The translations under genes and the position numbers were made by a program. 64,000 bases of DNA from Candidatus Heimdallarchaeota archaeon (lineage in GTDB: Archaea; Asgardarchaeota; Heimdallarchaeia; JABLTI01). How positions within the stretch are numbered: position 1 is the stretch's first letter; each line of letters starts with the position of its first letter. The stretch lies in contig JABCTZ010000046.1 in assembly GCA_018238155.1 (NCBI GenBank), positions 128,001 through 192,000 of the forward strand, in the 5' to 3' direction. The notes beneath the pieces were generated by a model. It had not been told where the DNA came from, ran no database searches, and worked only from the letters and a program-made list of their open reading frames with translations. Below are positions 3,375 to 7,555 of the stretch, piece after piece.

Positions 3375-4334
3375 GTGAGTTTCCTAAGAAGATTAATCAG
3401 TGCCGATAAAAAGAAAAGCGGTGAGGATATAAGCTCAAAACAACACGTAGCAATAATAGGACTAGACGCAGCAGGGAAAACAACAATAGTAAAAAGAATA
3501 CTGCGGTCAGAATATACGCTGTCAAAACCAACGTTTGGAGTAAATATCGAAGTTTACAGATATAGAACATTGGAATTCATCGTTTGGGATTTAGGTGGTC
3601 ACGCCCCGATTCGCAAGACTCTTTGGAAGAAGTTTGTTACAAAAGCTCAGACTATTGTTTTTGTTGTTGATGCTTCTGATCAGAAGAGATTTCAGTTAGC
3701 CAAAGATGTTTTCTATGAAACTTTAGAAAACACTGATCCCAAAGCTCCTGTTCTTTTCTTGGCTAATAAATCTGATAAAGAAGATGCTGCCTCTTCTGTT
3801 GAGGTTATGGAAGCTTTAGATCTTCAACAAATGATTCGTCTTGATCGTCCTTTTAACATGTTTCGTTGCTCTGCTCTTACTGGCGAAGGTTTATTTCCCG
3901 CCTGGGATTGGTTAGTTGATATTGGAGCCAAGGATCAAGCTATTCCCACTTGGCATGTCAAAATCTTTTCAGCAGTTGTTTTTGATTCAAATGGTAAAGA
4001 ATTGGATCAATGCATTTTTGGCAATCCTACTCAACAAGCAAATGTTGCCACAGCTTATCGTGAATCTATAAGAGAAACTGAACGCTTTGCTAAACAAATG
4101 CGTGATTATAACGAAGCAGTTACTGTTCTTGAGATAATGAAAAATTATCAACTAGTGATTACTAAGAATAAGCTCTTTGTAATGGGTGTATTAATTGATG
4201 TCAATGACCCCGTTAGTAGAGTTTTAACAATTTCTAGCAGAATTTTCGAAGCAATTGAGATGGAATATCTTAAAGGTTTAAGTATTTCACTTCAAGAAGT
4301 TATCTCTAATTATTTTCCATTAGACTCTATTTAG
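3375..4334 (+). CDS. Arf-family small GTPase fused to a C-terminal longin/roadblock-like domain
   Basis: G1 GLDAAGKTT, G2 PTFG, G3 WDLGGH, G4 NKSD, G5 CSAL. N-terminal amphipathic MSFLRRLIS. C-terminal domain starts IFSAVVFDSNG. Confidence 0.88.
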   Translation: MSFLRRLISADKKKSGEDISSKQHVAIIGLDAAGKTTIVKRILRSEYTLSKPTFGVNIEVYRYRTLEFIVWDLGGHAPIRKTLWKKFVTKAQTIVFVVDASDQKRFQLAKDVFYETLENTDPKAPVLFLANKSDKEDAASSVEVMEALDLQQMIRLDRPFNMFRCSALTGEGLFPAWDWLVDIGAKDQAIPTWHVKIFSAVVFDSNGKELDQCIFGNPTQQANVATAYRESIRETERFAKQMRDYNEAVTVLEIMKNYQLVITKNKLFVMGVLIDVNDPVSRVLTISSRIFEAIEMEYLKGLSISLQEVISNYFPLDSI

Positions 4335-4483: not shown

Positions 4484-5449
4484 ATGAAGGCATCAAAAAA
4501 AGCGATTGAATCATTTGCAAAATACTTGAGCAAGGATAATCATAAAGTTCCTTGGGTGCTTCTTATTGGTGAGAAAGGTTCTGGAAAAACAACTGCACTT
4601 TATTATCTCCTTTCTTCAAACAGAGACAAAATCTTTCCTGACACAGTCCTTAATTGGATTGATATTTCTTATGGTCAAGAGTGGTTTAAGCTCATCGATA
4701 TTGGAAATGAGATTTTAAACGATGAGAGTGTAATTGATTATTTTCTTTCAATTGCAGATGGCATTGTCTACGTTTTGAATGGAGAATCCGATGAGTCTCT
4801 TAGAAAATCTGTTGAACCCTTCCATGCTATTGTGGAGAAGATACCTTCTAATGTTCCCTTACTAACATTAGTGAACAAAAAAAGCCCTGAAAATAAAGTT
4901 AATCTTAGCCGAGTTTTAAGTTATTTTAATTTAGCTAAAATTTCTTCTCCAACGGACCCTCGTTCCTTTCATTTCGAAATTTGCACTATTTTGACTGGAG
5001 AAGGCATTTATCGTGGATTTGATTGGTTTATTTCAAAACTAATGCACTACGAAGGTTATCATGAGTATGTCACTATCCACCGTGTGTTAATTTATGATGT
5101 TAATGGCTTACTTGACTTTGATGCCCAGTTCTCAAATATCATGGATGATACGCAAGATGCTGTTCTTATAACAGGTTTGCTTTCTGCATTAAATTCAATG
5201 ACCAGGACACTCTTCAAAGATTCAAGTTTCTTGGATGTTGTAACTGTAGGTGATTATTCTATGGTTCTTGTTTCTCGCAATCAAAAGATCTGTTGCCTTT
5301 TTGTTGAACGAGGTGGAGCTATTGGTAAAGCAAAACAAATTGCTGAAATGATATTAGATATTTTCCTCATTGAGGGCGAGGAAGGAAGACTTGCTATTGA
5401 GAACCTTATTGATGAAAGTAAAAATAGTGATGAAACAATATCCGTTTGA
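4484..5449 (+). CDS. Degenerate Arf-like GTPase fused to a C-terminal longin/roadblock-like domain
   Basis: G1 GEKGSGKTT intact; G3 DIGN and G4 NKKS degenerate; CTILTGEG matches the paralog's CSALTGEG. C-terminal IHRVLIYDVNG...LITGLLSALNSM is longin-like. Confidence 0.8.
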   Translation: MKASKKAIESFAKYLSKDNHKVPWVLLIGEKGSGKTTALYYLLSSNRDKIFPDTVLNWIDISYGQEWFKLIDIGNEILNDESVIDYFLSIADGIVYVLNGESDESLRKSVEPFHAIVEKIPSNVPLLTLVNKKSPENKVNLSRVLSYFNLAKISSPTDPRSFHFEICTILTGEGIYRGFDWFISKLMHYEGYHEYVTIHRVLIYDVNGLLDFDAQFSNIMDDTQDAVLITGLLSALNSMTRTLFKDSSFLDVVTVGDYSMVLVSRNQKICCLFVERGGAIGKAKQIAEMILDIFLIEGEEGRLAIENLIDESKNSDETISV

Positions 5450-5542: not shown

Positions 5543-6346
5543 ATGGTAGGAATTGAATCACAGAAGGAGCATTTACTTGGGATTGTTTTTGTGACATTTG
5601 AAGATACAGGTCCAGCTGTCCCGTATAATGATACTCCACTTACTGATGAACAGACACTCACATTAGCAGTAGAAGGTATGACAATTGTAGGTCTTGATGA
5701 AGGTTCTTCAGGAAAGACTATGGAAGAAAAGAAAAACCAAATGTTTGATACTATGGATGATAAAAAGTCATTTGGTCCTCTCCCAGTTCCGGGCGAACCA
5801 ACTTTTCGAGCAATGGCAATTACCTTTGATGTTGAAGCAGAGGCTTCATCAGACAATAGAATTCAAGAATTCGGAAGAAAATGCATTCTCTTCTTACTCT
5901 TTAAGGAAGACTATACTCGAGAGATTCTTGATGCTTATGGACTTATTAAACCCTATTTCTCAGTAATTGTACGAGATATCACTTCTGAAAAAGATTTAAC
6001 ATTCGCGAACCTCCAAGAGCTTTCAAAGAAAATGGGTATGCTCTTTTCTGGAAAACTTCCACGAATCTTCACCCTCTTAGAAGATGGCTCACCTAAAGAA
6101 TTAATTGGTAAAAAGATACCTGCTGGCGACGTTTTCTTAGTTGCTGATAAAAATAAATGTACTCTTTCCATTCTCTTCTATCACCCTGACCCTACTGTTT
6201 GGCGGAGAAGGCAAATATACAAAAGTGCTTCAGAGCTGAACTCGAGTGTTTTTAGAAATAAACTTAAAGTTATTTCAGTAACTGAAATTGCAGAAATGTC
6301 AAAAATACTTGATAGATTAAATGTTTCAATAGAAAAGATCCACTAA
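5543..6346 (+). CDS. Longin/uDENN-like domain fused to a C-terminal gelsolin-like domain
   Basis: N-terminal GIVFVTFEDTGP...FGPLPVP...CILFLLF. C-terminal IPAGDVFLVADK...LSILFY...YKSASELN...KVISVTE resembles a gelsolin repeat (LnsgDvFilD...ifvW...A..l...i..v.E). Confidence 0.6.
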   Translation: MVGIESQKEHLLGIVFVTFEDTGPAVPYNDTPLTDEQTLTLAVEGMTIVGLDEGSSGKTMEEKKNQMFDTMDDKKSFGPLPVPGEPTFRAMAITFDVEAEASSDNRIQEFGRKCILFLLFKEDYTREILDAYGLIKPYFSVIVRDITSEKDLTFANLQELSKKMGMLFSGKLPRIFTLLEDGSPKELIGKKIPAGDVFLVADKNKCTLSILFYHPDPTVWRRRQIYKSASELNSSVFRNKLKVISVTEIAEMSKILDRLNVSIEKIH

Positions 6347-6511
6347 GTTTTTTTAGCCGATTTTTTCTTCTCTTTCTCTTTTATTGTTTTTTTACCTAAA
6401 CTTTTTTATTTATGATAAAAATGAAATGCTTGAACGAATAGCTTTATATTTTAATAAATTACATTAAAAAACATTATAATTTAAACTTGGTGGAAATCTG
6501 GTGGAAGATTA

Positions 6512-7033
6512 TTGAGCAAAATAATAGCTAAAGTTGTTTTTGGTGGAGACGGAGGAGTTGGAAAAACAACTCTCATTCAGAGATACCTTACTGGAGAATT
6601 CATTGATACAACGAAGCTAACCATTGGTGTAGGTTTTCATATTCACCAAATGAGCTATCAAGAAAGAGATATTTCACTTTCTGTTTGGGATTGCGGTGGG
6701 CAAGAACAATTCAAACAAATGGGCATTTTCGATAATTACTTTCGAGGAGCACTTGTAGCTATCTTAATGTTTGATTTAACAAGAGCACTTTCTGTTAAAG
6801 GATTAGATACATGGTATGATTTTGTTGATAAAAATTCTAAGACATCCATTATTCTTGTTGGTGGTAAAAGTGATCTTCCAAGAGATCCACTTCTAGATGA
6901 AGATGTAATTGCAGAAACAATAAAACAGTATGAAGCCATTCGTTATGTTGAGACTTCTGCATCAAATGGTTTAGGAGTAAACCTCGTTTTCAATGAAATC
7001 GCTCGTTTATCATTGGATAAAATTCCAAAATAG
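6512..7033 (+). CDS. Rab-like small GTPase
   Basis: GDGGVGKT, TIGVGF, WDCGGQEQF, GGKSD, ETSA. No C-terminal prenylation Cys. Confidence 0.92.
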   Translation: MSKIIAKVVFGGDGGVGKTTLIQRYLTGEFIDTTKLTIGVGFHIHQMSYQERDISLSVWDCGGQEQFKQMGIFDNYFRGALVAILMFDLTRALSVKGLDTWYDFVDKNSKTSIILVGGKSDLPRDPLLDEDVIAETIKQYEAIRYVETSASNGLGVNLVFNEIARLSLDKIPK

Positions 7034-7051: not shown

Positions 7052-7555
7052 CTATAATTCAATTTTCAATAATTCTGATATTCGACGAATTACTTTGGGT
7101 ATTGCAGATTCAACCTCTGAAGATAAGTGTATTCCTAATCCTTCAATATCTTTAACTTGAACACCAATTATTCGTATTTCAGATGGTATATCATATTCTT
7201 GCAAAGAAAAAGCTAATTTTAATGCAGTTATCGCATCGAATCCGTGTGTTGAGCTTAGTCCTTTAATCTCAGGTATATCCTTATTCTTCACACAATATTC
7301 AACAATAGCACCTGGATGTAAATAATCTAAATCTACTGCATCAATAATTATACCCATCGACCATCCATCTAAAGCTAAAATGATATCAATACCTCCAGTT
7401 CCAAGATCTGTAATCTTCACATTAGCGGGGATATTCTTTTTTCTTAATTGCTCAATTATTCGTATTGCAACTCCATCATCAAGGCGTGTTAAATTTCCAA
7501 TGCCAATTATATGGGCATATTTCTCTTTTTGAAGTTTAGAAGATAATTTAGTCAA
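7052..7555 (-). CDS. Hydrogenase maturation protease (HycI/HyaD family)
   Basis: IGIGNLTRLDDGVA, IIDAV, SSTHG motifs. Confidence 0.9.
   Translation of the reverse strand: MTKLSSKLQKEKYAHIIGIGNLTRLDDGVAIRIIEQLRKKNIPANVKITDLGTGGIDIILALDGWSMGIIIDAVDLDYLHPGAIVEYCVKNKDIPEIKGLSSTHGFDAITALKLAFSLQEYDIPSEIRIIGVQVKDIEGLGIHLSSEVESAIPKVIRRISELLKIEL

Follow-up and report, generated by a model that had tools for sequence, protein, structure and literature searches.

A longin-gelsolin protein encoded beside a pair of Arf-like GTPases in Heimdallarchaeota, a candidate GTPase-activating protein

In a Candidatus Heimdallarchaeota archaeon (assembly GCA_018238155.1), a stretch of 64,000 nucleotides of contig JABCTZ010000046.1 (positions 128,001 to 192,000 of the forward strand; designated the window in the following, with positions counted from its first letter and a G+C content of about 32%) contains at positions 5543-6346 of the forward strand an open reading frame (ORF) of 267 codons. 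Its 267-aa product, designated P0001, combines an N-terminal longin domain with a C-terminal gelsolin-type domain, and its gene follows two genes for Arf-family GTPases, G1 and G2, in an order which is strictly kept in two archaeal families. P0001 is probably a direct partner of G1/G2, and comparisons of sequences and models lead us to favor tentatively the explanation that it is a longin-type GTPase-activating protein (GAP) for G1. GAP-type longins of Heimdallarchaeia, Rag-like GTPase pairs, and Asgard gelsolins have each been published separately, whereas no description of a longin-gelsolin combination was found in the literature searched, and we know of no eukaryote that uses it.

The ORF is a genuine and strongly conserved gene, since 33 homologues of the same length (about 267 aa, 77-92% identity) are present in Heimdall-type metagenome-assembled genomes (MAGs), three paralogues occur in the same genome (45, 32, and 24% identity), and further matches are found within the phylum. 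The closest database proteins come from Heimdall-type Asgard MAGs, and the start codon is supported by the conservation of the N-terminus MxGxESKKEHLLGIVF among the homologues. When 301 genomes of the phylum were scanned, 79 contained members of the family; almost all of these genomes belong to a single class, and one family carries several copies per genome, typically 4-7. A supposed member of 1657 aa with SprB repeats (P0112) was discarded as a spurious bacterial match.

The link to the two GTPases was followed through 23 loci, of which 6 belong to other genomes of the genus of the window and 17 to a second family (Heimdallarchaeaceae by source names). All 23 show the genes for G1, G2, and the P0001 orthologue in the same order and orientation, although the P0001 orthologues of the two families are only about 40% identical; in the second family the genes are separated by 0-15 nt or overlap. 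Of the 11 and 31 genomes representing the two families, most possess G2 orthologues (E≤1e-33); a few gave only matches that were weaker or truncated at contig ends, and elsewhere only generic Arf-longin paralogues were found. G1 contains the motifs GLDAAGKT, DLGGH, and NKSD, and the best matches of its G domain are HodArfR1 of Asgard archaea (8oul, 34% identity) and Arl1/Arf1. The sequence-only reading had pointed to a neighboring His-type Arf as a possible client; the DLGGH switch II of G1 with H76 is indeed invariant, and the linkage was found at every locus examined. A C-terminal extension of G1 of about 130 residues was modelled, over residues 197-313, in the order β-β-α-β-β-β-α-α. G2, a divergent paralogue of the same architecture, has kept the P-loop and lost the DxxG sequence of the G3 motif, which reads DIGN in the genus of the window and EADE in the second family. 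By appearance, G2 is a partner of G1 that binds a nucleotide without hydrolysing it. The NKxD motif of G2 persists in the second family and reads NKKS in the genus of the window.

In a maximum-likelihood tree, the operon-linked proteins all fall into one clade (support 100/99). Within this tree P0001 is sister to the paralogue P0035, which would therefore be a later duplicate that left the operon. An association with a GTPase recurs in the other major clade of the family, where a 597-aa protein of a Promethearchaeota MAG (P0099, NCBI MFX1533204.1) carries a complete longin-gelsolin module at residues 4-259 (hhalign E=5.9e-30), behind which lie a GTPase domain of the Gtr1/RagA type at residues 286-473 (Pfam E=4.6e-34) and about 120 further residues. 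This natural fusion, as judged from its sequence, points to the same functional partnership of a longin-gelsolin protein with a GTPase. No longer (fused) relatives were found in a set of 5.8 billion sequences, a negative result of little weight, as P0099 itself came from an exhaustive search. The GP motif described below reads GT in P0099. In another relative of 345 aa (P0074), the same type of longin is combined with a V4R domain, which binds small molecules (Pfam E=5.6e-16), and many relatives of about 340 aa match P0001 in the N-terminal domain alone, their C-terminal halves being unassigned.

An AlphaFold2 model of P0001, built from an alignment of 30 rows spanning 22-92% identity, reached a pLDDT of 79.6 and a pTM of 0.67. 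Residues 11-143, together with a helix at 154-168, are arranged in it as β-β-α-β-β-β-α-α, the order of longin domains. In an exhaustive structural comparison of the model with 48,161 PDB representatives (VIA Z scores), the best match of the N-terminal domain was a Lokiarchaeal longin (8yqg, Z 13.2), followed by C9orf72 (7o2w, Z 11.6), Lst4 (Z 11.5), chains of FLCN-FNIP2 complexes (6nzd_H, Z 10.4; 6ulg_N, Z 8.9), a GATOR1 chain (8fw5_B, Z 9.3), and one chain from the SEA complex (8adl_S, Z 8.7); these matches cover residues 5-171. Foldseek and the ESM Atlas agree on the division into two domains, and the latter returned C9orf72 with a TM score of 0.52 as well as an archaeal cluster in which 23% of the members carry the Pfam Folliculin domain. 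Three proteins of the same genome pass the Folliculin cut-off. One of them, with 232 aa, has its Pfam match exactly over the region 'DSKARGGFR' and was aligned with the profile of the N-terminal domain by hhalign over 117 columns (probability 95%, E=3.9e-8); a second one gave E=4.9e-5. Searches of PDB sequences with profiles of the whole family and of the N-terminal domain recovered no longin, and 51 family members gave no match to any longin, DENN, or gelsolin model of Pfam. By their predicted fold, residues 1-171 are a longin domain of the FLCN/NPRL2/SMCR8/C9orf72 class; what follows them is a gelsolin-type domain and not the C-terminal DENN or NPRL2-type domain of that class. The hairpin pattern F..F....GP, which had been noticed from the letters in the segment GIVFVTFEDTGP (residues 13-24) and likened to such longins, is borne out by the model, the fold searches, and hhalign alike. 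A charged insertion between helix α1 and strand β3 (residues 53-74) is long solely in the operon-linked clade and is a gap in most other members. The 232-aa FLCN-like protein (contig C8, minus strand) bears 'DEKVGP' and 'KDSKARGGFR', near copies of FLCN motifs, and its gene lies directly upstream of a gene for a 248-aa protein.

For counting conserved residues, the 110 full-length two-domain members were reduced to 48 at <70% identity. The near-invariant positions fall almost entirely within the longin domain and form three groups: D21 (45/48), G23 (48/48), P24 (47/48), and N29 (43/48); G78 (48/48) and P81 (47/48); and D104 (47/48), R106 (46/48), G111 (44/48), and R112 (38/48). G23 and P24 form a GP motif located between the modelled strands 11-20 and 23-29 (β1-β2), and the last group lies in the loop between β4 and β5. 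Human FLCN R164, which we take to lie within 'DSLARGFQR', and NPRL2 R78, presumably placed just before strand β5, would both fit this loop of P0001. A GP motif is reportedly common to FLCN, NPRL2, SMCR8, and C9orf72 and absent from longins that are not part of GAPs, and the motif together with an arginine finger has been described as the hallmark of GAP longins, both having been noted in Heimdallarchaeial longins (PMC12290439). Also, Arg147 of SMCR8, contributed by its longin domain, points toward the BeF3 in ARF1 (PMC8213707). The gap-free alignment by hhalign pairs D104 and R112 with the aspartate and the second arginine of 'DSKARGGFR' in the FLCN-like protein, which suggests that the β4-β5 loops of the two proteins are homologous, with the conserved arginine shifted by two positions. 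A paralogue in the same genome, P0036 (contig C41, 21989-22748), has kept the GP hairpin and carries Glu in place of R106 and Leu in place of R112, as does P0052; this recalls the non-catalytic partners (FNIP, NPRL3, C9orf72) of the eukaryotic longin GAP heterodimers.

In eukaryotes, longin domains of this class make up the catalytic core of GAP complexes, of which SMCR8-C9orf72 acts on Arf1, FLCN-FNIP on RagC, and NPRL2-NPRL3 on RagA. If P0001 is a GAP of this kind, its longin domain would dock onto the G domain of G1 in its GTP-bound state, G1 being the intact partner and having a DLGGH switch II, and an arginine of the β4-β5 loop, most likely R106 with R112 as the alternative, would enter the active site of G1 as SMCR8 does on ARF1, the D-x-GP hairpin shaping the pocket. 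Such a supply of an arginine by P0001 is plausible because G1 itself lacks an arginine where the finger would be and possesses an invariant switch-II histidine as found in Sar1. G2 would serve as the non-hydrolysing partner of G1, probably paired with it via the C-terminal longin-type domains in the manner of Rag heterodimers, and the gelsolin-type domain would stand in for the DENN domain of FLCN/SMCR8 as an adaptor, with actin as one candidate partner.

Several observations weigh against a GAP function. No family of Pfam or NCBIfam reached its threshold with P0001. The 'ARG' arginine of the FLCN-like protein aligns to Q108, two residues past R106, so that the two arginines share a loop without being equivalent in position in the strict sense. 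Since the strongest structural matches include the non-catalytic proteins C9orf72 and Lst4/FNIP, besides a plain longin of Lokiarchaeota, the fold as such does not separate a GAP from a scaffold or a guanine nucleotide exchange factor (GEF). Eukaryotic longin GAPs work as heterodimers, whereas P0001 is a single chain here. Finally, outside the operon-linked clade a small GTPase is encoded within about 6 kb at only 3 of 15 loci, which is near chance in these GTPase-rich genomes and represents no enrichment; the paralogues of the same genome, considered as further GTPase neighbors, had to be rejected, as they lie next to pilin/SPFH, DUF, and RING-finger genes. A predicted complex of G1, G2, P0001, and two GTP molecules scored 0.67, both controls of the partner-replaced type scored 0.00, and the control with G2 replaced scored 0.65; by the rule of the method the prediction is thus non-specific, and it counts as evidence neither way.

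Given such matches, the longin domain could instead be a non-catalytic platform which holds the G1-G2 pair, or a GEF which promotes nucleotide exchange, similar to Ragulator, Mon1-Ccz1, TRAPP, or DENN proteins. Most longin and roadblock regulators are reportedly GEFs or scaffolds (PMC3747258), and TRAPP, Mon1-Ccz1, BLOC-3, CPLANE, and the sigma/mu subunits of adaptors match P0001 at Z 7-8, in addition to C9orf72 and Lst4 as its top eukaryotic matches. We nevertheless consider this function unlikely, as the GP motif is reportedly confined to GAP longins (PMC12290439) and a near-invariant Asp-x-Arg is located in the very loop that bears the FLCN-type arginine.

In the C-terminal domain, residues 174-258 are modelled as β-β-β-β-long helix-β-short helix, the order of gelsolin domains, with the mixed sheet lying between the long and the short helix, and match ProGel of Thorarchaeota (7c2f) with Z 9.9 and a root-mean-square deviation of 2.6 Å over 86 of 88 residues at 17% identity (Foldseek TM score 0.73 by target). 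Further matches are adseverin, two-domain gelsolins of Loki- and Heimdallarchaeota, gelsolin G2/G4, villin, fragmin, and severin. A profile of this domain alone retrieved ProGel end to end from 177,635 PDB sequences with E=2.6e-5 and villin with E=0.008-0.01; with the profile of the whole protein, ProGel was obtained at E=0.008. The last 85 residues or so had been proposed to be a gelsolin repeat, and model, fold searches, and profile searches agree on a somewhat larger domain of about 96 residues: on this basis residues 172-267 are a gelsolin-type domain nearest to ProGel of Thorarchaeota. It is kept in 110 of 110 full-length members recovered and has its own conserved residues N233 (42/48) and E251 (35/48). 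The W-x-G motif of gelsolins is replaced by L-F-Y-H-P-D. The genome also encodes a canonical two-domain gelsolin (2DGel; 217 aa, both domains passing Pfam Gelsolin; contig C7, 238755-239408, about 47 kb beyond the end of the window), with which the domain of P0001 aligns in register but weakly (hhalign E=0.006, probability 6%). In this alignment D202 is retained, and R221 occupies the position of the Glu of 'VDEKF', which we take to be a type-2 Ca2+ ligand.

A gelsolin-type domain invites the view that P0001 is an effector or adaptor rather than a GAP, its longin domain binding G1/G2 through the G domain or the longin-type domains and its gelsolin-type domain recruiting or modulating Asgard actin. 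ProGel binds actin in 7c2f, an actin of eukaryote-like type is present in the genome (Pfam Actin E=1.5e-133; actin genes on contigs C45 and C20), and the domain with its conserved N233 and E251 is missing from none of the full-length members recovered. On the other hand, ProGel itself binds G-actin weakly, the domain of P0001 does not reach Pfam Gelsolin (PF00626) whereas 2DGel does, FYHPD stands in place of W-x-G, and an arginine in place of the type-2 Ca2+ glutamate. A free-standing copy of the P0001-type gelsolin domain was not found in this genome, and the longin domain would have its almost invariant motifs, D-x-R and GP, left unexplained. Such an effector or adaptor role has a small chance of being correct. 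Lower still do we rate a two-function switch in which the arginine finger of the longin domain turns off G1 while the gelsolin-type domain binds Asgard actin or another filament; if it existed, an archaeon would have a physical coupling of the GTPase cycle to the remodelling of its cytoskeleton.

The sequence-only reading had offered the cluster W220-R221-R222-R223 as a candidate source of the catalytic arginine in the gelsolin-type domain, which would contact the Arf-like GTPase as Sec23 contacts Sar1. In Sec23 the gelsolin-like domain indeed supplies the catalytic residue for Sar1 (PMC11914678), the C-terminal domain of P0001 matches that of Sec23A with Z 6.9 (aligned only over residues 619-723), the switch-II histidine of G1 is Sar1-like, and among the operon-linked orthologues W220 and R223 do not vary and R221 hardly does. 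The proposal is very improbable all the same: among the 48 members Arg is found at position 221 in 13, at 222 in 12, and at 223 in 20, with Phe at 223 in 12; position 202 is Asp in 33 and Asn in 12 and co-varies with 223, Asp going with Arg and Asn with Phe; about a dozen true gelsolins match better than Sec23; P0001 has neither the trunk nor the helical domain, which account for most of the Sec23-Sar1 interface; and R258, roughly opposite the Sec23 finger as estimated from alignment ranges, is replaced by Leu/Ile in those operon-linked orthologues that belong to the second family. Because positions 223 and 202 co-vary and R221 lies on the Glu of VDEKF, a charge partner of D202, possibly standing in for a calcium site, is a more fitting role for the cluster than that of a catalytic finger, and the β4-β5 loop of the longin domain offers with R106 the better candidate.

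The features of the locus are listed in Table 1. Downstream of the P0001 gene, a gene for a Ras/Rab-like GTPase is found at all 6 other loci of the genus of the window and at none of the 17 loci of the second family. The Rab-like gene probably is a separate transcription unit, because a T-rich tract follows the P0001 gene and its own TTG start has an A/T-rich sequence resembling a TATA box ahead of it (within 6347-6511). The GTPase cluster is directly followed by a gene for a HycI-type hydrogenase maturation protease (7052-7555, minus strand; Pfam E=2.7e-19). At 2072-2929 lies an ORF of 285 aa without Pfam match, whose 'LHPHIQIIQ' recalls a histidine triad of the HIT/GalT type.

Table 1 Features of the P0001 locus; positions refer to the window
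Feature	Position	Strand	Basis
G1, Arf-family GTPase with C-terminal longin-type domain (residues ~197-313)	3375..4334	+	Pfam Arf E=6e-43
G2, paralogue of G1, divergent but of the same architecture	4484..5449	+	Pfam Arf E=6e-15; alignment
P0001, longin-gelsolin gene, 267 aa	5543..6346	+	ORF; orthologues 77-95% identity; conserved N-terminus
Longin domain of the FLCN/NPRL2/SMCR8/C9orf72 class and linker helix, residues 1-171 (predicted)	5543..6055	+	AlphaFold2 model, fold searches, hhalign
GP motif D21-T-G23-P24, β1-β2 hairpin	5603..5614	+	Conservation counts
Low-confidence charged insertion, residues 53-74, between helix α1 and strand β3	5699..5764	+	pLDDT 55-56 in blocks 51-70
β4-β5 loop D104-N-R106-I-Q-E-F-G-R112 with candidate arginine finger R106 and second arginine R112	5852..5878	+	Conservation counts, hhalign
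Gelsolin-type domain, residues 172-267 (predicted)	6056..6343	+	AlphaFold2 model, ProGel match, profile search
W220-R221-R222-R223, start of the long gelsolin helix, arginine cluster of the sequence-only reading	6200..6211	+	Sequence
T-rich tract just past the stop codon of P0001, likely archaeal terminator	6347..6400	+	Reading of the sequence
Ras/Rab-like small GTPase	6512..7033	+	Pfam Ras E=2.5e-35

The native GAPs and GEFs of Asgard Arf-family GTPases remain unknown according to a structure-based search (Zhu et al., PMC11914678). In the present case, the strict order of the genes in two families, together with the natural fusion seen in a third lineage, connects a longin of the GAP type with a defined pair of GTPases, and therefore a candidate enzyme, its substrate, and point mutants can be named in advance. 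If P0001 acts as assumed, the longin-GAP mechanism, which in C9orf72, FLCN, and GATOR1 belongs to the branch of nutrient and lysosome signalling, would predate eukaryogenesis, and it would become apparent which small GTPases were first served by longin GAPs. The gelsolin-type domain adds a possible cytoskeletal or Sec23-like link. The Sec23-like proteins of Asgard archaea are devoid of the gelsolin-like domain (PMC11914678), and in a bolder variant of the proposal Arf-linked gelsolin modules such as that of P0001 could be the source of the missing domain.

Among the known systems, P0001 can be compared first with the Arf GAP C9orf72-SMCR8(-WDR41) (7mge, 7o2w), with which it shares the longin fold, the GP hairpin, and an arginine in the β4-β5 loop, the client being Arf1 in one case and probably also an Arf-family GTPase in the other. 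P0001 differs in having a gelsolin-type domain and no DENN domain, in consisting of one chain of 267 aa without a WDR41-like subunit, and in a sequence similarity to these eukaryotic proteins that is undetectable in profile searches of the PDB. With FLCN-FNIP and NPRL2-NPRL3 of GATOR1 it has the longin class in common (Z 8.7-10.4), and the paired G1-G2 genes for GTPase-longin proteins resemble the Rag heterodimers which are the clients of these complexes, P0099 even being fused to a RagA-type GTPase. In contrast, the loop reads D-x3-R-x3-R in FLCN and D-x-R-x5-R in P0001, the C-terminus is a DENN or NPRL2-specific domain in FLCN/NPRL2 and a gelsolin-type domain in P0001, and the clients are Gtr1/Rag-like in the former whereas G1 and G2 are Arf-like by sequence. 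Heimdallarchaeial proteins with a longin of the FLCN/SMCR8 type have been noted before (PMC12290439; Liu et al., bioRxiv 2020.10.19.343400). ProGel (7c2f), the single-domain prototype of Asgard gelsolin/cofilin, has the same fold as the C-terminal domain of P0001 end to end, and both lack the gelsolin Ca2+ sites, but ProGel stands alone and binds actin, whereas the domain of P0001 is in this genome always fused behind a longin, lacks W-x-G, and has its own N233. Sec23, the Sar1 GAP of COPII, resembles P0001 in possessing a gelsolin-type domain and in its link to a GTPase of the Arf/Sar kind that carries a switch-II histidine; its trunk, barrel, zinc-finger, and helical domains are absent from P0001, the structural match is weaker (Z 6.9), and the candidate arginine positions in the gelsolin-type domain of P0001 are not conserved. 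Finally, Prometheoarchaeum MK-D1 possesses an operonic Rag-like pair of two adjacent paralogous genes for GTPases with longin/roadblock domains, which are predicted to heterodimerise (Tran et al. 2024, PMC10933270). No third gene was described in that report, whereas here the longin-gelsolin gene is strictly linked to the pair and G2 lacks the G3 motif.

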